IMG/VR virus record: IMGVR_UViG_2645727775_000011
Coordinates: 1-7,277 of that record
DNA: 7,277 bases
Source of the DNA: a virus
Lineage: Duplodnaviria; Heunggongvirae; Uroviricota; Caudoviricetes
Reading direction: 5' to 3' (one strand)
The notes below the pieces were generated by a model. It saw nothing but the letters and a program-made list of their open reading frames with translations, made no database searches and had not been told where the DNA came from. Both the position numbers and the translations under genes were made by a program. Positions 1 through 7,277 of the stretch are shown here, one piece after another; the stretch's first letter is position 1, and every line of letters starts with the position of its first letter.

Positions 1-25
1 TTTATCTAGCTATAAAGCACATCTA

Positions 26-217
26 TTGGATATGCATTTTCAATACATTGATAATTTAACGGAAGAACCAATACCAGTTGAAGATGATCTTATTTCCTAT
101 GCTTTAGACACAGGAAGTTTTTACCATCCAGAAACTGGCGAATTGGTTGATAATTTTAGCCAGTATCTTTATCCATACTTTACTCCTTCGAGTCTTTTGG
201 AGAGTCTGCATGAGTGA
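26..217 (+). CDS. Small acidic ORF, possibly the 3' end of a longer gene running off the window start; translationally coupled to the downstream nuclease-like gene
   Basis: ORF track 26..217 begins at a TTG. The same frame has no stop between position 2 and 25, and the first in-frame ATG (32) has no Shine-Dalgarno, so a 5'-truncated longer gene is likely. Its stop TGA (215-217) overlaps the ATG (210-212) of the next gene. The product is acidic and aromatic-rich. Region is AT-rich. Confidence 0.4.
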   Translation: MDMHFQYIDNLTEEPIPVEDDLISYALDTGSFYHPETGELVDNFSQYLYPYFTPSSLLESLHE

Positions 218-851
218 TGTAAACATCTGTACTGCAGACCTTCAATCATTAATTAGAATGGATCCTGAATTTAGGGGAATGGTTCAAAGAAAATTAGCTG
301 CAGACAAAAATATTTTTGTAAAGCAACTCTATGAAGATTTAGACGACGCTATTCAGAATTTAGAAAATGACAAACACTTCTATCAAGATGCTAAGTGGGG
401 AGAGGACGAGCTAACAGCGTCGATCAAAAATTTCCTGAAAGGTAGGTTTTATGATGTTGAACATGATACTCAACATGGCGGTCACGTTGATTTATTAGTT
501 AAACATCAATTCGGAAAATTCGAATGGATCGGTGAAGCAAAATTATGGAGAGGCCCCAAATCTATTCATAATGGCTGGATTCAGCTAACCGAACGTTACG
601 GCACGGGTACGTCACGTGACGATCATGGAGGAATTCTAATTTATATAAAGTCTGACAAATCAGCAGTAAAATTCAATGAATGGAAAGAATTTTTCTCTAC
701 GACCGTTTCGGACGCAGAAATTGAAGCGGAAGGCTCTCCCCTCCGCTTTAAGAGTATCACAAAGCATCCAGCAACAGCGCTTCCATATCATGTAAGACAC
801 ATGGGAGTATCCTTATACCATTACACTGGTAAAAAAACCGCTGACTCTTAA
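210..851 (+). CDS. Putative PD-(D/E)xK-fold nuclease (about 213 aa): restriction-endonuclease-like, toxin or defence effector candidate
   Basis: ATG at 210 is preceded by GGAG (199-202) at 7 nt; the track's TTG start at 147 is rejected. The translation contains GGHVDLLV followed 16 residues later by EWIGEAK, matching the hhD...ExK core of PD-(D/E)xK nucleases, with a preceding Glu-rich helix. AT-rich composition. No database search was possible. Confidence 0.55.
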   Translation: MSDVNICTADLQSLIRMDPEFRGMVQRKLAADKNIFVKQLYEDLDDAIQNLENDKHFYQDAKWGEDELTASIKNFLKGRFYDVEHDTQHGGHVDLLVKHQFGKFEWIGEAKLWRGPKSIHNGWIQLTERYGTGTSRDDHGGILIYIKSDKSAVKFNEWKEFFSTTVSDAEIEAEGSPLRFKSITKHPATALPYHVRHMGVSLYHYTGKKTADS

Positions 852-1369
852 CTGGTAATTGCTATATATCCAGTCAAAAAACCTAAGGCTTTTTGCAATC
901 TTTTACGAATTGTTCCATCTGAACATCCTTGTTGCTTTGCAATAGCACGAAGAGATAAACCAATCACGAAATGAGCAACAATTAACTCATATTCTTGTTG
1001 CTTATATCTTTCTAACCTAAGGATACTAATGTCAATAATTCGCCCTTCATCATTGCTGCACTGACGACGTGATTTTTTACCATGAGGAACAACATTTTTA
1101 TATTTATCAGCTATTTCCTGCCAATCAATAGAACTATTACCAGCCACAACCCAAGCCCCCCAATCGTCTAAAATCTCACATATATCAACATTACTATCCA
1201 TCTGTTTTTTATTTTCTATTTTGAAATAACCAAGCAGCATTCTAGCCATTGTTGTTATTTCTATACTTGTAACTGACTCATAAGCATGAGGAGAAACAAT
1301 TCTCTCATCACTTAATGCCCAATCACTAAGGTTTGCTATTTCCAACAATCGTTCTTTAGTTATTCCCAT
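848..1369 (-). CDS. Phage antitermination protein Q-like (about 173 aa) with C-terminal sigma-70 region-4-like HTH
   Basis: ATG at 1369 is preceded by GGAG (1378..1375) at 5 nt; the track's GTG at 1381 is probably not the start. Motifs WGAW, RRQCSND and CSDGTIRKRLQKALG recall the Q antiterminator family (QuuD-like), from memory. It is the last gene of the minus-strand early operon. Its stop overlaps the stop of the convergent plus-strand gene (848-851). Confidence 0.55.
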   Translation of the reverse strand: MGITKERLLEIANLSDWALSDERIVSPHAYESVTSIEITTMARMLLGYFKIENKKQMDSNVDICEILDDWGAWVVAGNSSIDWQEIADKYKNVVPHGKKSRRQCSNDEGRIIDISILRLERYKQQEYELIVAHFVIGLSLRAIAKQQGCSDGTIRKRLQKALGFLTGYIAITS

Positions 1370-1380
1370 TATTATCTCCA

Positions 1381-1396
1381 CCGCCCTTTCGGGCGG
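1381..1396. promoter_or_regulatory. GC-only stem-loop (CCGCCC-TTTC-GGGCGG) directly upstream of the Q-like RBS
   Basis: Perfect 6-bp G/C stem with a 4-nt loop. On the minus-strand transcript it ends 3 nt before the Q-like Shine-Dalgarno. No strong U-tract follows on either strand. Confidence 0.35.
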
Positions 1397-1501
1397 CCTC
1401 CTGATGATTTGAGGGTGCAGGAATCCCTCCGGTTAAGGATTTAATAAAAATCGTTTCTGATTTAAATCTTCAGTATTTAGTTGTTAGTCGGTTTATAGCC
1501 T

Positions 1502-1813
1502 TTATGCTTCGACCTTATTTCTCAGCCATACACAAACCGGGCCATCTTCGGTGTCATGTATTGAACCAATAAACCATCCATTGCCCTCTGGTCGTTCCGG
1601 TTCCCATGCAGAAATATCAGCATCACACGCATCAAGGTCAGCACATCCTTCATCTCTGAAGCAGAGGACGTATTGAAGATTATTTTCCTCCATCCAGGCG
1701 TTAAACTCTTCCGTTGAAATATATTCCCGACCGTCACAGAATTTTTCATATTCAGGATGCGTCCAGCAGCCATATTCATCACGTACTACTGGTATTTCTT
1801 TAATTTCATTCAT
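1502..1813 (-). CDS. Hypothetical phage protein (103 aa), acidic with 6 Cys
   Basis: ATG at 1813 is preceded by GGGAG at 7 nt. Clean ORF; the overlapping alternate-frame ORF 1522..1782 is rejected. It occupies the nin-like position between the replication gene and Q. No recognisable family. Confidence 0.6.
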   Translation of the reverse strand: MNEIKEIPVVRDEYGCWTHPEYEKFCDGREYISTEEFNAWMEENNLQYVLCFRDEGCADLDACDADISAWEPERPEGNGWFIGSIHDTEDGPVCVWLRNKVEA

Positions 1814-2056
1814 TTCTGTTCTCCCACGTTTTCAGACTTTCACCACAGAACGGACAAAATGAAACCCGAACTGGTAATTTAGAAAATTCACCGGAACGCA
1901 ACATCACAAAATCAGGACCGCGAGTTAAACTCTCATTTCAGATTTTGTATATCAGCAGACCTTTTCGCATCGTGTATTCAGCATCACGCTCAAGGGACTT
2001 TGCCAGTGCTGCACATGGTTCTATCTTGTTGCCATTAACCTGGCATTTTGATTCAC

Positions 2057-2479
2057 TCACCGCACCACCTCCTCAAAATTCCCCTGATAAAACGCCAGTA
2101 CGCGCTGCATAGCTTCGCTCTTCCGGCACTCGCGACAGATTATGTTCTGACGCCTGTCGTAGCGACGTATTTCTCCGTCAGGTAATGACCAGATAAGGTC
2201 CGGATCAACCGCAGATGGTTTCTTCAGCTTTGCCCTTGAGAGCTTTTTACGGGCATTTTGCCAGTCCTTACGCGCCTGTTCAGACGGGAATAACCCGTAA
2301 CCAGAGTTGTATACATCGCCACTGGCAACCAGCTCTCTGGCCAGAACGCTCATCAGATATCTTGTTGCCCCAGTTTTAGTTTCCAGTTGTCGTAACGTCT
2401 CGCGCCCACTCTGGCGTACGAGTTCAACAACCTGCCCTTTAATTTTTTCCCGCTCTTCTTGTGTAAAAACTTTTGCCAC
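2057..2479 (-). CDS. Hypothetical basic protein (140 aa) with possible winged-helix region and C-terminal CxxC
   Basis: GTG start at 2479 is preceded by a perfect AGGAGG at 5 nt. It lies immediately downstream of the initiator gene in the same operon. The K/R-rich sequence suggests nucleic-acid binding. No recognisable family. Confidence 0.6.
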   Translation of the reverse strand: MAKVFTQEEREKIKGQVVELVRQSGRETLRQLETKTGATRYLMSVLARELVASGDVYNSGYGLFPSEQARKDWQNARKKLSRAKLKKPSAVDPDLIWSLPDGEIRRYDRRQNIICRECRKSEAMQRVLAFYQGNFEEVVR

Positions 2480-2519
2480 AAGCCCTCCTGAAAATTACCT
2501 CATGACCAGAAATTAACAC

Positions 2520-3452
2520 TTACCCCCTGAAGCCCGGCGGAATTTCAGTGTCCGGTTCAGAAATGTGATTCACGCAACGCTGCGCAGGCGAACGCCCCAG
2601 GCGGATAACCAGTTCATCCCATTTTTCCCGGAGTTTTGCCGGACTCATGATGTTTTTTACCCAGAACGAATCCCGCTGGAGACGCCCAAACATTTCACAA
2701 ATTTGTCTGTGAGTTCTGCCATCCAGCATCCGCATTGTGCGAACGTCATTGGCCCATGCTGTCCAGTTGGGTTCTTTCGGTCTAGTGATCTCGCCATCAT
2801 AGCTGGCCGCCTGCTCGTAAAGACTCACGATTCGTCCCCAGATCCACTGTGCGCACACCAAATCTTCCTGACTTCCCCACTGGCGTTTTTTCGCACTGAA
2901 CACAACCGCGTCAGGGTGTCGGGTTAAAAAATCCTGTTCAGCCGTCTGCGGGTCCGGTTGCGAAGCGTCCGGACAAGAAGATCTTTTATCTGACGGATCA
3001 GGTTTTAATACTGACGGATCGGGGTCAATCATCGCCCCCCTAATCGGCAGTTTTTTATCAACAGTTGATCCATCAAAATTTGACGGGTCAACTGTTAACG
3101 GGTCATTTTTTGCCGGGCTAATTTTTCTTTTCGGTTTATATGACTCACGCGCCGCCGCCGCAGCTGCTTCGAGTTTTTCCACATTAAGCCGATAGATATT
3201 GCTTACATTACGCCCACCGACCTTACGCTCTTCCTTCGTCAGCCAGCCCTCTTTCGCCAGTTCTGCAATAGCCGATTTCACTGTGGATTCACTTCTTGCA
3301 CCGATCTGACGCCGGATAGTTTCAATGGCAGGCCATGACACGCCCTCGTCATTGCTGTAGTCTGCAAGACGGGCCATAACCGCCACCCTGGATAAGATCA
3401 TGCCGGTGAAGGCGCACCCTTCCCAGACAAGACCATGAAGCTTGCTGCTCAT
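2520..3452 (-). CDS. Replication initiation protein (lambda O-like architecture: N-terminal HTH, P/D/S-rich linker, C-terminal domain)
   Basis: ATG at 3452 (MSSKLHGLVW...) is preceded by GGGGG; the track's GTG at 3467 has no Shine-Dalgarno. The N-terminus has a winged-HTH-like segment (SWPAIETIRRQIGARSESTVKSAIAELAKEGWL). The middle is a low-complexity Pro/Asp/Ser linker encoded by repeated DNA. Its position after the cro-like and ydaT-like genes fits a lambdoid replication module. Confidence 0.7.
   Translation of the reverse strand: MSSKLHGLVWEGCAFTGMILSRVAVMARLADYSNDEGVSWPAIETIRRQIGARSESTVKSAIAELAKEGWLTKEERKVGGRNVSNIYRLNVEKLEAAAAAARESYKPKRKISPAKNDPLTVDPSNFDGSTVDKKLPIRGAMIDPDPSVLKPDPSDKRSSCPDASQPDPQTAEQDFLTRHPDAVVFSAKKRQWGSQEDLVCAQWIWGRIVSLYEQAASYDGEITRPKEPNWTAWANDVRTMRMLDGRTHRQICEMFGRLQRDSFWVKNIMSPAKLREKWDELVIRLGRSPAQRCVNHISEPDTEIPPGFRG
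2990..3160. repeat. Iteron-like direct repeats plus adjacent AT-rich tract inside the initiator gene: putative origin of replication
   Basis: Motif TGACGG(A/G)TCA occurs at 2991-3000, 3012-3020 and 3081-3090, with TAACGGGTCA at 3096-3105 and a near-inverted copy TGATCCATCA at 3066-3075. A T-rich stretch follows (3105-3145). This parallels lambda ori lying within O. Confidence 0.4.
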
Positions 3453-3474
3453 AAAACCCCCGAACACCGTGCTT

Positions 3475-3900
3475 TTAGTGCATCACCACAGCATTCCCTG
3501 CCGGGCCGCCGCGATTCATCTGGTCATACAAAACAACCGCTGACGCAACAAAATCATCGACATCCTTCACCAGCCGATCCCTCCGTTCGACGATCTCACG
3601 GTAATATTCAGAACTGTGGCTGCGCATACGGGCCACCAGCAAAGGCGGCATCGCCTTTTCGATCGCCGGTAACAGAGCCTGCATTTTTTCAACAGCATCA
3701 GGGGTGTCTTTATCCAGCCAACGGAAAATTTTCTGGGTATTACGGGCCAGGGCTTCCGGATGGCTGTCGTCATACAGTTCCGGGAACGTCATTCCCAGCT
3801 CGAAATACGCTTTGGTAATTTTCGCAGCCGGCACTTTTTCGCCGTCCGGATGCGCCCAGACATTCATCGCCATGCGGATGTGTTCATGCTTGATTTTCAT
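3475..3900 (-). CDS. ydaT: YdaT-like protein (141 aa) of Rac-type prophages
   Basis: ATG at 3900 is preceded by AGGAG at 8 nt. The N-terminus MKIKHEHI matches my recollection of E. coli YdaT. It overlaps the 3' end of the upstream cro-like gene by 17 nt, as in ydaS-ydaT pairs. Confidence 0.65.
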   Translation of the reverse strand: MKIKHEHIRMAMNVWAHPDGEKVPAAKITKAYFELGMTFPELYDDSHPEALARNTQKIFRWLDKDTPDAVEKMQALLPAIEKAMPPLLVARMRSHSSEYYREIVERRDRLVKDVDDFVASAVVLYDQMNRGGPAGNAVVMH

Positions 3901-4165
3901 GAATCAAGCTCCTAGAAAGTGGTTGTGTTAACGTTTTGGTATCTTCCAGCTCGGGCCAAATATTCATCCAATCAAAAGGCCTTAGTTGCTGACGTGTAAC
4001 TTCACCATTACTGGCTCGCTCAATAAGGACACATAACGATGCCCCTAACACTTGACCTTTACTCAATGCCTTTCTTAGATAACCGATGCTGGTACCACAC
4101 TCGCATGCAAACATACGCTGTTCATCTGACGAAAGAGAATTGAGAAATATTCTTAATTCTTCCAT
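3884..4165 (-). CDS. ydaS: Cro-like transcriptional regulator, YdaS family (93 aa)
   Basis: ATG at 4165 is preceded by GGAG at 5 nt. The segment CVLIERASNGEVTRQQLRPFDW resembles the YdaS/Cro-like family as recalled. It is divergent from the CI-like gene across a 100-bp operator region. Confidence 0.65.
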   Translation of the reverse strand: MEELRIFLNSLSSDEQRMFACECGTSIGYLRKALSKGQVLGASLCVLIERASNGEVTRQQLRPFDWMNIWPELEDTKTLTQPLSRSLIHENQA

Positions 4166-4174
4166 AGCTACTCC

Positions 4175-4272
4175 TTAGTAAACACAGCAAAGAATACCCG
4201 CAGGTAAACAAAAGACAATACCCACAGGTTGTTTACCTTGCGGTAATCGCATCTATTATTTACCTATGGACA
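4175..4272. promoter_or_regulatory. Divergent promoter-operator region (oR-like) with TACC-N4-GGTA palindromes
   Basis: Perfect sites are TACCCGCAGGTA (4195-4206) and TACCTTGCGGTA (4234-4245); weaker copies are TACCCACAGGTT (4219-4230) and TACCTATGGACA (4261-4272), the last overlapping the repressor ATG. A candidate promoter for the repressor has -35 TTTACC (4232-4237) and -10 TATTAT (4254-4259), with no Shine-Dalgarno before ATG 4266, suggesting a leaderless mRNA as for lambda cI. Confidence 0.5.
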
Positions 4273-4685
4273 AATATGAATTTAGACGACAGCAACTCAT
4301 CAAAATTCGTGATGAGAAATGCGATGGTAAAGCGGTTAACGTGGCCAGAAAGATCGGGCGCGAGCCTTCTTATGTATCAAGAATGTTGTACCCAGAGGGG
4401 AAAAAGGGAAAAAAACGGATCGCTGATGATATGGTGGAGATTATCGAAGAGTCCTTTGGGTTACCCCGGGGATGGATGGATGGTATCGTTTCATCATCAA
4501 CGAACACAGCCTCCAGTTATGAAACAAGGGTTCTAACGCCACGACAACGTATTTTTTTAGATCTCTTAGACGAACTGCCAGAAAGTGAAGCGGATAAATT
4601 ATTAAAAACTCTTGAAGAGAAAAAACAGTATTACAATATGATCTACGAAGAAATCCGTAAAAAGAAAGCACAAAACGCATCATAG
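4266..4685 (+). CDS. CI-like prophage repressor (139 aa; DicA/RacR-like, XRE-type HTH)
   Basis: It is divergent from the cro-like gene. An HTH lies near residues 20-40 (AVNVARKIGREPSYVSRM). The C-terminal LPESEADKLL segment recalls DicA-type repressors. The alternate-frame ORF 4276..4536 is rejected. Confidence 0.7.
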   Translation: MDKYEFRRQQLIKIRDEKCDGKAVNVARKIGREPSYVSRMLYPEGKKGKKRIADDMVEIIEESFGLPRGWMDGIVSSSTNTASSYETRVLTPRQRIFLDLLDELPESEADKLLKTLEEKKQYYNMIYEEIRKKKAQNAS

Positions 4686-4727
4686 CTCACCAAACAACTA
4701 GTCACCAGTTAAGACACCGCAAAAATT

Positions 4728-4764
4728 TACCCATAGGTATTTACTTTTTAAATACCTATGGGTA
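4728..4764. promoter_or_regulatory. Perfect 16-bp inverted repeat built from two TACC-N4-GGTA sites: oL-like operator and/or intrinsic terminator downstream of the repressor gene
   Basis: Positions 4728-4743 pair perfectly with 4749-4764 around a 5-nt loop, and a T-rich run follows (4765-4775). The arms are TACCCATAGGTA and TACCTATGGGTA, the same motif as in the cro-cI intergenic region. A possible promoter overlaps it: -35 TTTACC (4726-4731) and -10 TTAAAT (4748-4753). Confidence 0.45.
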
Positions 4765-4950
4765 TCCTTCTTTTCATACCAACCCACCCCGCCCCACAGA
4801 ATGCAGGGCAATACTTCGAGTTACCAGGCAGTGGTCAGGGGTTAAGTAGCCAGCCCGAGGCGTAAGAACATGACGGCAGGGTTCAACTTTAATAACTATG
4901 CAGCAGGTTTTTGTTCCGCTACCCCGGCGTTAAGGGGAAATGAGGTCAAC

Positions 4951-5103
4951 ATGGATATGCTCAATCTTGGCAACAACGAATCTCTGGTATGTGGCGTGTT
5001 CCCCAACCAGGACGGCACGTTTACCGCGATGACGTATACCAGAAGCAAAACGTTTAAAACTGAAGCTGGCGCGCGTCGCTGGTTAACCAGAAACACTGAC
5101 TGA
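4951..5103 (+). CDS. ydfA: YdfA-like small protein (50 aa), first gene of the dicB-type operon
   Basis: ATG at 4951 is preceded by GAGG (4942-4945) at 5 nt; the track's upstream ATG at 4870 is less likely. The sequence MDMLNLGNNESLVCGVFPNQDGTFTAMTYT matches my recollection of Qin YdfA. Length is close to the 51 aa of YdfA. Confidence 0.55.
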   Translation: MDMLNLGNNESLVCGVFPNQDGTFTAMTYTRSKTFKTEAGARRWLTRNTD

Positions 5104-5114
5104 TGAGGTTGACG

Positions 5115-5516
5115 ATGGAATTTAAAGATTTACCAGTACCATTCCAGGAAATGGCATCGAATGTGGTTCGCTCTCAACTGGCGACTCTTGACCTGAGTAC
5201 CGTAGAAAAAGAAACCATCGATACTATATCCGGTAACGTGCGTCGTGCCTTTATAGGTCTGTATGAAGAGAAGCGCCTATTCGGCGGACAGAATTCGCCT
5301 GAAAACAAGAATCAAGCAAATGATGAGAAGCTGAAACACATTATCGCCTTACTTTTGGAAGACGCAAAACGTTTACAGCAACTGGAACCAAATGCAGGCA
5401 CAGAGGCCCGCATTTGGATTGCCATGAAATCACTCAAATGTGAAAGCAGTGATTATTTCAAAACAACAATTAAAACTACTCAACTTTCGGGAGAGCTACT
5501 GAAGAAATTGCCATAA
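5115..5516 (+). CDS. Hypothetical protein (133 aa) at the ydfB/ydfC position of the dicB operon
   Basis: ATG at 5115 is preceded by GAGG (5105-5108) at 6 nt; the track's start at 5103 overlaps the upstream stop. The stop of the ydfA-like gene (5101-5103) lies just upstream, indicating an operon. The 3' end overlaps the convergent antisense ORF by 41 nt. Confidence 0.55.
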   Translation: MEFKDLPVPFQEMASNVVRSQLATLDLSTVEKETIDTISGNVRRAFIGLYEEKRLFGGQNSPENKNQANDEKLKHIIALLLEDAKRLQQLEPNAGTEARIWIAMKSLKCESSDYFKTTIKTTQLSGELLKKLP

Positions 5517-5754
5517 GAGCATGGTCTTTCTCTTGTTCTGCAAGATGAGCATTAATACCTGGTATGGTTTTTTCAAATTTATCTATCTGTTGAATAACAA
5601 CTTCGCGGTATACGTTTGTTTTTGTACCACCAAGCGCAGCCGTTAATGCAGAAAGCATATTTAGTATCATATCAGTGCGATATGAAAGAATCCTGATAGC
5701 TTCATCTTGTTTTTCAATAATAGATTGCAGGGCCTCAATTTGCTTTTTATCCAT
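5476..5754 (-). CDS. Hypothetical AT-rich antisense ORF (92 aa), predicted helical, inside the dicB-type operon
   Basis: ATG at 5754 is preceded by a perfect AGGAGG (5765..5760) at 5 nt. The clean 93-codon ORF sits in an AT-rich block between GC-richer flanks. The track's upstream start at 5793 is rejected. No recognisable family. Confidence 0.5.
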   Translation of the reverse strand: MDKKQIEALQSIIEKQDEAIRILSYRTDMILNMLSALTAALGGTKTNVYREVVIQQIDKFEKTIPGINAHLAEQEKDHALMAISSVALPKVE

Positions 5755-6085
5755 TTCACCCTCCTGAGGGTTGGTAATTAAGGAGTTCTCCACGGGTCAG
5801 GTGGAGTGCGTGCGCCGGACACGGGTGAACATCCGGCACTGACAGTTTACTGAAAGGATATGTCCCTGAAAAGTCAGGGCATAACGCGAAAGCGCACGGC
5901 AAAATTGGTCTCTCTGTACGGTGTCGTTAAATTTAGTTCGACCGTGCGCTTCCGGTTGTGGCACTCCGCGAAATGGCGCGGCGGTAAGTATGGCGGGGTT
6001 ATTCCTTCCCCGTTGAGGACACCGGGTTGTCAGGTTGACCATACGCTTAAGCGACAACCCCGCTGCAACGCCCTCTGTTATCAAT

Positions 6086-6140
6086 TTTCTGGTGACGTTT
6101 GGCGGTATCAGTTTTACTCCGTGACTGCTCTGCCGCCGTT
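6086..6140 (+). ncRNA. dicF: DicF small RNA (ftsZ-targeting sRNA of Qin-type prophages)
   Basis: TTTCTGGTGACGTTTGGCGGTATCAGTTTTACTCCGTGACTGCTCTGCCGCC followed by a T-run (6139-6143) matches my recollection of E. coli DicF nearly exactly. It lies about 170 nt upstream of dicB, as in the K-12 operon. Confidence 0.75.
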
Positions 6141-6312
6141 TTTAAAGTGAATTTTGTGATGCGGTGAATGCGGCTGAGCGCACGCGGAACAGTTAAAACC
6201 AAAAACAGTGTTATGGGTGGATTCTCTGTATCCGGCGTTAATTGTTAACTGGTTAACGTCACCTGGAGGCACCAGGCACCACATCACAAAATTCATTGTT
6301 GAGGACGCGATA

Positions 6313-6501
6313 ATGGAAACGTTATTACCAAACGTTAATACGTCTGAAGGTTGTTTTGAAATTGGTGTCACTATCAGTAACCCTGTATTTACTGAAGATG
6401 CCATTAACAAGAGAAAACACGAACGGGAGCTATTAAATAAAATATGCATTCTTTCAATGCTGGCCCGTTTACGTCCGATACAAAAAGGATGCTGGCAATG
6501 A
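6313..6501 (+). CDS. dicB: Cell division inhibitor DicB (62 aa)
   Basis: ATG at 6313 is preceded by GAGGA at 7 nt. The product METLLPNVNTSEGCFEIGVTISNPVFTEDAINKRK... matches recalled DicB sequence and length. It follows DicF. The track's extended start at 6208 is rejected. Confidence 0.8.
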   Translation: METLLPNVNTSEGCFEIGVTISNPVFTEDAINKRKHERELLNKICILSMLARLRPIQKGCWQ

Positions 6502-6689
6502 ATACAGCATTTGCACTTGTTCTGACAGTTTTTCTTGTTTCCGGAGAGCCAGTTGATATTGCAGTCAGTGTTCACAGGACAATGCAGGAGTGTGTGACTG
6601 CAGCAACCGAACAGAAAATTCCCGGTAACTGTTACCCGGTCGATAAAGTTATTCACCAGGATAATAACGAAATCCCGGCAGGTCTTTAA
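6498..6689 (+). CDS. ydfD: YdfD-like small lysis/membrane protein (63 aa)
   Basis: ATG at 6498 overlaps the dicB stop (ATGA) and is preceded by AAGGA. It has an N-terminal hydrophobic segment (AFALVLTVFLVSG) and two Cys. Length and position match ydfD downstream of dicB. Confidence 0.6.
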   Translation: MNTAFALVLTVFLVSGEPVDIAVSVHRTMQECVTAATEQKIPGNCYPVDKVIHQDNNEIPAGL

Positions 6690-6781
6690 AACAGTTCCGT
6701 AATAAACATCCGGTTTCATTCTTATATGCCAGCAATGGCAGGGATTTGTTCACCCTTAAATCTGTAATGAGGTAAAACAAA

Positions 6782-7277
6782 ATGAGTAAAGTCTTTATTT
6801 GCGCTGCTATTCCTGATGAACAGGCCATAAAAGAAGATAGCGCTGTTGCGGTGGCCACTGCCATTGAAGCTGGTGATGAGCGTCGCGCACGCGCAAAATT
6901 TCATTGGCAATTTCTGGAGCAATTCCCTGCAGCTCAGGACTGCGCTTATAAATTTATTGTCTGTGAGGATAAACCCGGCATACCCCGCCCTGCCCTCGAT
7001 TCCTGGGATGCTGAATATATGCAGGAAAACCGCTGGGATGAGGAGTCTGCTTCCTTTGTCCCGGTTGAGACTGAATCAGATCCGATGAACGTCACTTTTG
7101 ACAAGCTGGCCCCTGAAGTACCGAACGCTGTCATGGTTAAGTTCGACACATGTGAAAACATCACCGTTGATATGGTTATTAGCGCACAGGAATTGTTGCA
7201 GGAAGACATGGCAACATTCGACGGACATATCGTTGAAGCGTTGATGAAAATGCCAGAAGTTAACGCCATGTATCCGG
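6782..7277 (+). CDS. ydfE: Acidic hypothetical protein, YdfE-like; 3' end runs off the window (at least 165 aa)
   Basis: ATG at 6782 is preceded by TGAGG (6768-6772). The frame stays open to the window end and was not in the ORF track because it lacks a stop. The product (MSKVFICAAIPDEQ...) is Asp/Glu-rich. Position after ydfD matches ydfE in Qin. Confidence 0.5.
   Translation, partial: MSKVFICAAIPDEQAIKEDSAVAVATAIEAGDERRARAKFHWQFLEQFPAAQDCAYKFIVCEDKPGIPRPALDSWDAEYMQENRWDEESASFVPVETESDPMNVTFDKLAPEVPNAVMVKFDTCENITVDMVISAQELLQEDMATFDGHIVEALMKMPEVNAMYP

Follow-up and report, generated by a model that had tools for sequence, protein, structure and literature searches.

The 7,277-nucleotide stretch analyzed here (the window; positions 1 to 7,277 of IMG/VR virus record IMGVR_UViG_2645727775_000011) spans the region for immunity and replication in a lambdoid Escherichia coli prophage and carries, on its minus strand, the gene for an O-like replication initiator (2520..3452). 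The linker-coding part of this gene contains five short palindromic repeats, which very probably act as binding sites of the lambda-O-like initiator encoded by the same gene, and the set is likely to be the iteron array of the prophage replication origin. The repeats are present in non-random number, are constrained as DNA, and are tied to the N-terminal domain of the initiator (N-domain). Binding by this domain, origin firing, the site of unwinding, and the route of helicase recruitment are what we infer from them. An origin located inside the initiator gene is textbook knowledge for phage lambda, and the principle is therefore not new.

The whole window was searched for the motif TGACGGRTCA, allowing up to one mismatch. 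All five matches fall within 2991-3105 (115 bp), with none elsewhere in the 7,277 bases; four are direct and one is inverted, so the window-wide search bears out the initial annotation, which had described four direct decamers and one inverted copy in about 115 bp of the linker-coding part of the initiator gene. The copies form two clusters, a promoter-proximal one at 3065-3106 and a distal, GATC-containing pair at 2990-3022, with centre-to-centre spacings of 15 bp and 21 bp, respectively. The distal pair comprises B1 (2990..3001, CTGACGGATCAG; core 2991-3000, TGACGGATCA) and B2 (3011..3022, CTGACGGATCGG; core 3012-3021, TGACGGATCG, one mismatch), both direct and both with an internal GATC. 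On the coding strand, B1 reads GAT CCG TCA GAT, identically in the homologues from Erwinia, SfIV, Morganella, and Klebsiella Kp4866-6, and B2 reads GAT CCG TCA GTA, which is also kept in homologues; a half-site, GGGTCAA, lies at 3022-3028, right after B2. In the proximal cluster, the inverted copy A-inv (3065..3076, TTGATCCATCAA; core 3066-3075, TGATGGATCA on the minus strand) contains a GATC and encodes D-G-S rather than D-P-S. It is followed by two direct copies, A1 (3080..3091, TTGACGGGTCAA; core 3081-3090, TGACGGGTCA), which is an exact 12-bp palindrome except at its centre, and A2 (3095..3106, TTAACGGGTCAT; core 3096-3105, TAACGGGTCA, one mismatch).

The core is itself palindromic (TGAY-NN-RTCA) and is extended by its flanks to TTGAY..RTCAA in the proximal cluster and to CTGAY..RTCAG in the distal pair, giving nTGAY-SS-RTCAn as the consensus site. 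Under the strict definition TGAYNNRTCA, three copies occur in 120 bp, a number reached by none of 2,000 dinucleotide-preserving shuffles (shuffle mean 0.46). A-inv and A1 stand head-to-head and together form a 37-bp palindrome at 3060-3096, an inverted repeat with 18-nt arms that are 89% complementary; its folding energy as a single strand is -11.3 kcal/mol (z -5.6). The copies all share a single minus-strand reading frame of the initiator, at codons 116-154 of 310, where they encode D-P-S, D-P-L, and D-G-S.

The copies share one frame and their products are D-P-S-like tripeptides, which makes a repeated peptide the obvious rival to a DNA element. Codon usage was examined in six diverged genes (E. 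coli, Erwinia, SfIV, Klebsiella phage Kp4866-6, Yersinia phage YeP1, and phiP27) and in four genes added later (Klebsiella, Morganella, Edwardsiella, and Pantoea). In the six-gene set, the serine of the linker [DENH]xS tripeptides is encoded by TCA in 37 of 43 cases, compared with 24 of 146 serines elsewhere in the genes (Fisher p 5e-17); the corresponding counts in the four added genes are 26/33 and 15/109 (p 5e-12). Pooled over the ten genes, TCA accounts for 63 of 76 motif serines and 39 of 255 others, counts that are not fully independent since repeat copies within a gene arise by duplication, a caveat that weighs against the origin reading. The TCA pattern recurs in all ten genes, whose N-domains share 51-72% identity. 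Within the same linkers, serines outside the motif use TCT or AGC even at a distance of a few codons. The peptides themselves differ (DPS, DAS, DTS, DGS, EGS, EPS), as does the middle codon, while the outer TGA...TCA is kept. In Edwardsiella and Morganella, both orientations of the motif occur in the same frame, with TGACCCCTCA encoding D-P-S and TGAGGGGTCA encoding E-G-S. Judged from these codon patterns, the conserved feature is a DNA motif rather than a peptide.

The motif also follows the N-domain across homologues. Four to seven copies (up to one mismatch) were found in nucleotides 280-520 of all seven first-examined genes with this N-domain, which carry differing C-domains and neighbours (PerC, methylase, DnaC plus DnaB, DUF977). 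Four further homologues with the same N-domain contain 4 to 12 copies each, so that the motif is present in 11 of 11 such genes. Five genes with other N-domains have 0-2 copies in the same interval, and the motif is absent from three genes that share the C-domain but combine it with other N-domains and other repeats. At the DNA level, the C-domain region is 87% identical to the O genes of phages mEp460 and HannyBb, and this likeness ends near 2990, that is, at the iteron boundary; beyond it, mEp460 has another N-domain and other repeats, namely five 23-bp units and three 12-bp units. Relatives from Citrobacter and Rahnella likewise carry arrays of their own, composed of 23-24-bp units, at the same mid-gene place. 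By this sequence comparison, the repeats co-vary with the N-terminal DNA-binding domain, and the two are exchanged as one module. In lambdoid phages, origin specificity has classically been argued from such joint exchange of the N-domain and its repeats.

The initiator comprises 310 aa when translated from the ATG used as the RefSeq start of identical genes; an in-frame GTG at 3467 would lengthen it by 5 aa, and a RefSeq coding sequence exists for the near-identical gene in locus L001. It matches PHROG 391, annotated as 'replication initiation O-like', at 1e-115. The N-domain (aa 1-104; 3141..3452, minus strand), the presumed iteron-binding module, contains Pfam HTH_36 (PF13730) at aa 30-76, scoring 27.9 bits against a gathering cut-off of 25, and the same domain is precomputed for nearly all homologues. 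AlphaFold2 predicts a winged helix for aa 1-104, with topology H-H-H-H-E-E-H and predicted local distance difference test (pLDDT) values of 73-89. The nearest Foldseek matches of this model in the PDB are weak (E above 1e-3) and belong to MarR/ArsR/PadR winged-helix dimers; they are consistent with a dimeric winged-helix domain and are not diagnostic of it. The linker (aa 109-170; 2943..3128, minus strand) holds all the repeats and is predicted to be disordered (pLDDT below 50), which fits the proposal of the initial annotation that the repeats account for the low-complexity character of this segment. The C-domain (aa 172-290; 2583..2939, minus strand) is homologous to that of lambda O, aligning by BLASTP with lambda O aa 171-277 at 39% identity (E 4e-26). 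No match of the N-domain to the lambda O N-terminal type (Phage_rep_O) was obtained in Pfam at E values up to 0.01, and BLASTP against lambda O aligned the C-domain only; the Pfam search likewise returned no Rep_3-type match for the initiator. Initiators of the same type, with the same arrays, are found in the functional phages SfII, SfIV, YeP1, and phiNP.

The resemblance to lambda ori extends to several levels. In both systems, the repeats lie mid-gene in the linker-coding part (codons 116-154 of 310 here, 117-145 of 299 in lambda), the individual repeats are internally dyad-symmetric, the C-domains are homologous, the gene order is cro, cII, O, and a ren-like gene, and the N-domain and repeats are swapped together as a module. 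The differences are equally distinct. The N-domain is of the HTH_36 type, with no detected similarity to that of lambda O. Lambda has four direct 18-bp repeats spaced by 20-24 bp in the lambda record, about two helical turns apart, whereas the iterons here are 10-12 bp long, spaced by 15 bp, present in both orientations, and divided between two clusters. The present locus also lacks a 78% A+T tract, has no P gene after the initiator, and encodes an extra DnaT-like tail. The lambda-ori-like arrangement proposed in the initial annotation finds computational support in the O homology, the codon position, the constraint on DNA, the covariation with the N-domain, and the disordered linker. On these computational grounds, the element is probably a lambda-type origin in an initiator gene, whose protein has a related C-domain and which would work like lambda ori.

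Comparison with other systems places the element more precisely. In work on the Shiga toxin (Stx) phages 933W and 'P27', iteron number differs (four versus six) between related phages, lambda and Stx phages included; since the iterons are part of the coding sequence, the initiator changes length with them (Kozlowska et al. 2020; PMC7466680). The length shift is 13 aa in that case, compared with 5 or 10 aa between E. coli alleles of the present type. The Stx origins differ in having a lambda-type O and iterons together with a P partner, and in having been analyzed by electrophoretic mobility shift assay and footprinting, whereas the present type is known by computation. The 'P27' of that study, which has a lambda-type O with P (PMC7466680), is not the phiP27 L17 protein analyzed here. 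DopC combines an HTH_36 N-domain with a C-terminal DnaT motif and is regarded as a derivative of phage O-like initiators (Brezellec et al. 2017; PMC5509034). It is a chromosomal protein without the lambda O C-domain, is paired with the P-like DopE, and no iterons were found in it; by contrast, the protein in the window has the O C-domain and clear iterons and lacks a P partner. Iteron plasmid origins (RepA/pi/RepE, with 17-22-bp direct repeats) share repeated sites for a winged-helix initiator and variable copy number, and differ from the present element, which consists of short palindromes in a coding region, has no Rep_3-type match, and belongs to a lambdoid prophage. The Eru replication-type paper on Stx phages does not mention iterons, a replication origin, or this gene set (PMC8044961), and the SfIV genome paper does not describe the origin (PMC3851460). 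More generally, no description of the origin of this initiator subfamily was found in the literature searched, which misses many subscription papers.

Duplex stability was evaluated with a nearest-neighbour profile, expressed as z relative to the window mean. The T-rich tract at 3105..3144, named in the initial annotation as a T-rich segment following the repeats and examined here as the candidate unwinding element, is indeed T-rich on the plus strand (AT skew -0.68). It is only 68% A+T and about 1 sd less stable than the window mean, its A+T content is exceeded at a dozen other places in the window, and homologues have no counterpart of the tract at that position. By the same measure, the AT-rich region of lambda ori reaches 78% A+T and a z of 3.4. 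The tract was not accepted as the unwinding element, being weak in the stability profile and not conserved. The best unwinding candidates beside the repeats have 68% A+T and z values of 1.0-1.4. An alternative candidate is 2975..3014, the least stable 40-mer of the gene, which overlaps B1 and part of B2 together with GATAAAAGATCT. Its equivalent ranks first to third among the least stable 40-mers of the gene in the window, L001, SfIV, YeP1, Kp4866-6, and Erwinia, and in most homologues the least stable 40-mer reaches into the distal pair and the GATAAAAGATCT that comes after it. There are four GATC (Dam) sites, at 2980, 2996, 3017, and 3067, where 0.32 would be expected for 2980-3070 (post hoc P 3e-4), and the Asp codon of the distal pair is GAT, producing GATC, in nearly all inspected genes. 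The conservation of GATC in the distal pair hints at a methylation- or SeqA-sensitive control. Perfect matches to the DnaA box were observed at 3175-3183 (plus strand, TTTTCCACA) and 2460-2468 (minus strand, TTTTACACA), along with a one-mismatch box at 3055-3063. DnaA boxes were set aside as parts of the origin, and the perfect box at 3175-3183 was not counted because it is not conserved in SfIV. A promoter and terminator scan revealed nothing notable inside the origin region.

The number of repeat units varies naturally. In E. coli genomes, the stretch corresponding to 3040-3115 occurs in 76-, 91-, and 106-bp versions, which contain two, three, and four direct 15-bp units. The window is shorter than the common E. 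coli allele by 30 bp, equal to two 15-bp units or ten codons; the site of the missing segment lies within 3078-3098, and its register is ambiguous because the sequence is repetitive. The common allele is the four-unit form, which has seven motif copies versus five in the window. It is present in all 80 IMG/VR loci among the matches listed, a set of near-identical loci that serves to gauge allele frequency and not covariation, and its protein cluster has 3,163 member sequences. The exact allele of the window was found in one of 5,426 complete genomes, that of strain GN02050. Protein lengths of homologues vary in 5-aa steps, and linkers range across genera from very few units to at least nine. 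At the extreme, an allele from Klebsiella (P0112; L101:1501-2514) has an uninterrupted run of 15-bp units (TCTGACACATCAAAA and variants), at least nine in number. Homologues show almost no variation in the distal pair (DPDPSV..DPS). Classical ori-minus mutations of lambda are small in-frame deletions within the iterons.

Several points weigh against an origin at this site, in addition to the caveat on codon counts given above. There is no strong AT-rich element, and the T-rich tract, besides being weak and not conserved, occupies the other flank of the iteron array compared with that of lambda. The spacing of the distal pair is 18, 21, or 24 bp among homologues, and 12 bp in Kp4866-6. With two units fewer than the common form, the allele in the window could be a weakened origin. 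Since the iterons are shorter than those of lambda (10-12 versus 18-19 bp) and spaced by 15 bp, O-some-like wrapping should not be assumed. The searched literature yielded no binding or origin-activity experiment for any member of the subfamily. Some of these features would suit a purely regulatory role, in which the repeats bind the initiator and mediate autorepression, titration, handcuffing, or a transcription roadblock, with opening and helicase loading occurring elsewhere in the prophage. The absence of a convincing AT-rich unwinding element next to the array agrees with such a role, as do the division into two clusters with unlike flanks and spacing and the conserved distal GATC sites, which could serve as a methylation-sensitive switch. 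We consider it unlikely, given that each related initiator type keeps its own mid-gene array, as does lambda, where the array is the origin, and that the 7.3-kb window, which is part of the prophage, contains no second cluster of the motif.

Two further explanations dispense with binding by the initiator. The repeats might be a mere by-product of a tandemly duplicated, low-complexity DPS/T linker and have no function as DNA. The single reading frame with similar tripeptides, the predicted disorder and variable length of the linker, and the fact that slippage in a repetitive linker would likewise generate 15-bp indels all suit this idea. It is nonetheless improbable, because synonymous positions are fixed (TCA at 63/76 versus 39/255) while amino acids vary, because the motif is a DNA palindrome whose inverted copies encode other peptides (DGS or EGS instead of DPS), and because it tracks the N-domain and not the C-domain or the linker length. 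Least credible to us is binding of the palindromes by another factor, whether the DUF977/Ren-like protein, the CII-like protein, host SeqA/Dam at GATC, or DnaA. The excess of GATC sites in 2980-3070 (four against 0.32 expected, post hoc P 3e-4), the perfect and one-mismatch DnaA boxes at 3175-3183 and 3055-3063, and a match of DUF977 to a PHROG DNA-binding family speak for such a factor. Against it, homologues that keep the motif have wholly different neighbours (PerC, methylase, ParB-HTH, DnaC/DnaB, lambda P) and share only the N-domain, most copies of the proximal cluster use GAC and thus contain no GATC, and conservation of the DnaA box does not extend to SfIV.

The last 21 aa of the initiator form a DnaT-like tail (AQRCVNHISEPDTEIPPGFRG; 2523..2585, minus strand), a near copy of the C-terminus of E. 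coli DnaT. In phmmer comparisons with PDB entries 2ru8, 6aep, and 9zbt, 15 of the 21 residues are identical to DnaT 159-179. The NCBIfam DnaT model (NF002770) is matched only at positions 159-179, with 16.8 bits against a cut-off of 201, so the protein is not a full-length DnaT; the tail accounts for the label 'primosomal protein I' given in phage records. The gene after the initiator is DUF977/Ren-like, and no match to P, DnaC, or DnaB was found between the initiator and Q. Tail type and the presence of P were compared in a small, hand-picked sample of loci, in which the split is clean. A DnaT-like tail (..IP[PAR]GFRG) is followed by lambda P in none of nine loci (the window, L001, mEp460, E. 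albertii, SfIV, Citrobacter, Kp4866-6, Klebsiella L101, and Pantoea L104), one of which has a different C-domain. All five loci with a lambda-like tail (lambda, Erwinia, Rahnella, Morganella, and Edwardsiella) are followed by Phage_lambda_P. This pattern suggests that the tail may replace P-mediated helicase recruitment. A preprimosome study from 2026 reports that the C-terminal domain of DnaT docks on PriA and its linker on PriB (PMC13377028); a contact of the last 21 residues of DnaT cannot be established from that paper, and no statement of what the DnaT-like tail binds was found in the literature searched.

By analogy with lambda, the origin could operate as follows. The initiator would be produced from an early rightward-type transcript, which would start at a Cro-side promoter and pass through the cro-like and cII-like genes before reaching it. 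Dimers of the winged-helix N-domain would bind the 10-12-bp palindromes (nTGAY-SS-RTCAn) of the proximal cluster and the distal pair, the resulting nucleoprotein complex would destabilize adjacent DNA, and the lambda-O-like C-domain, along with the DnaT-like tail, would bring in the host helicase-loading machinery. The 15-bp spacing corresponds to about 1.4 helical turns, so neighbouring dimers would sit on nearly opposite faces of the helix. A more specific scheme, which we put forward tentatively and regard as possible rather than probable, is a P-less lambdoid replication module, in which an O-like initiator acts on short, 15-bp-spaced palindromic iterons with alternating helix faces and, with no phage helicase loader involved, either the PriA/PriB restart primosome or DnaB-DnaC of the host is recruited directly by the DnaT tail of the initiator.

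The surrounding genes follow the lambda-like gene order given above. Q (848-1381), the DUF977/Ren-like gene (2057-2479), the CII-like gene (YdaT, 3475-3900), and the Cro-like gene (YdaS, 3884-4165) lie on the minus strand, and the repressor gene (4266-4685) on the plus strand. Directly 3' of the repressor gene, a 37-bp near-perfect palindrome with a 16-pair stem (4728-4764) scores as a bidirectional terminator-like site in AT-rich surroundings. DicF antisense RNA was detected at 6087-6138 on the plus strand (Rfam RF00039; score 72.5 bits, gathering score 48), with open reading frames for DUF1391 (4870-5103) and DUF1482 (6444-6689) nearby. In strain DA33137, a near-identical locus is flanked by dicB, ydfC, ydfD, and hokD. 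The DicF RNA and this dicB/ydfC context identify a Qin/dic-type lambdoid prophage. The initial annotation had suggested comparison with Rac-like prophages; we rejected that comparison, since the initiator is not of the YdaU/YdaV type and DicF and dicB/ydfC point to Qin/dic. The segment 2400-3600 is 99.4% identical to many E. coli chromosomes; of 5,426 complete genomes of this species, about 4,160 have related sequence, and in 1,511 the matches cover 80% or more of the region. The same initiator type is also found in phages of Shigella (SfII/SfIV), Klebsiella, Yersinia, Salmonella, Edwardsiella, and Erwinia.

The analysis provides a concrete candidate origin for a widespread initiator type, together with a consensus site. 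Natural alleles with two, three, and four proximal units allow comparison, and searches for such origins in other sequences can make use of the synonymous-codon signature. Knowledge of the origin helps in judging the replication capacity of prophages and in constructing phage-derived replicons. The combination of a DnaT-like tail with a lack of P could teach something new about helicase recruitment and could prove more than routine. If the scheme proposed for it is true, the tail would be a portable 'helicase-loading ticket' and would offer a handle on the role of the last residues of DnaT.

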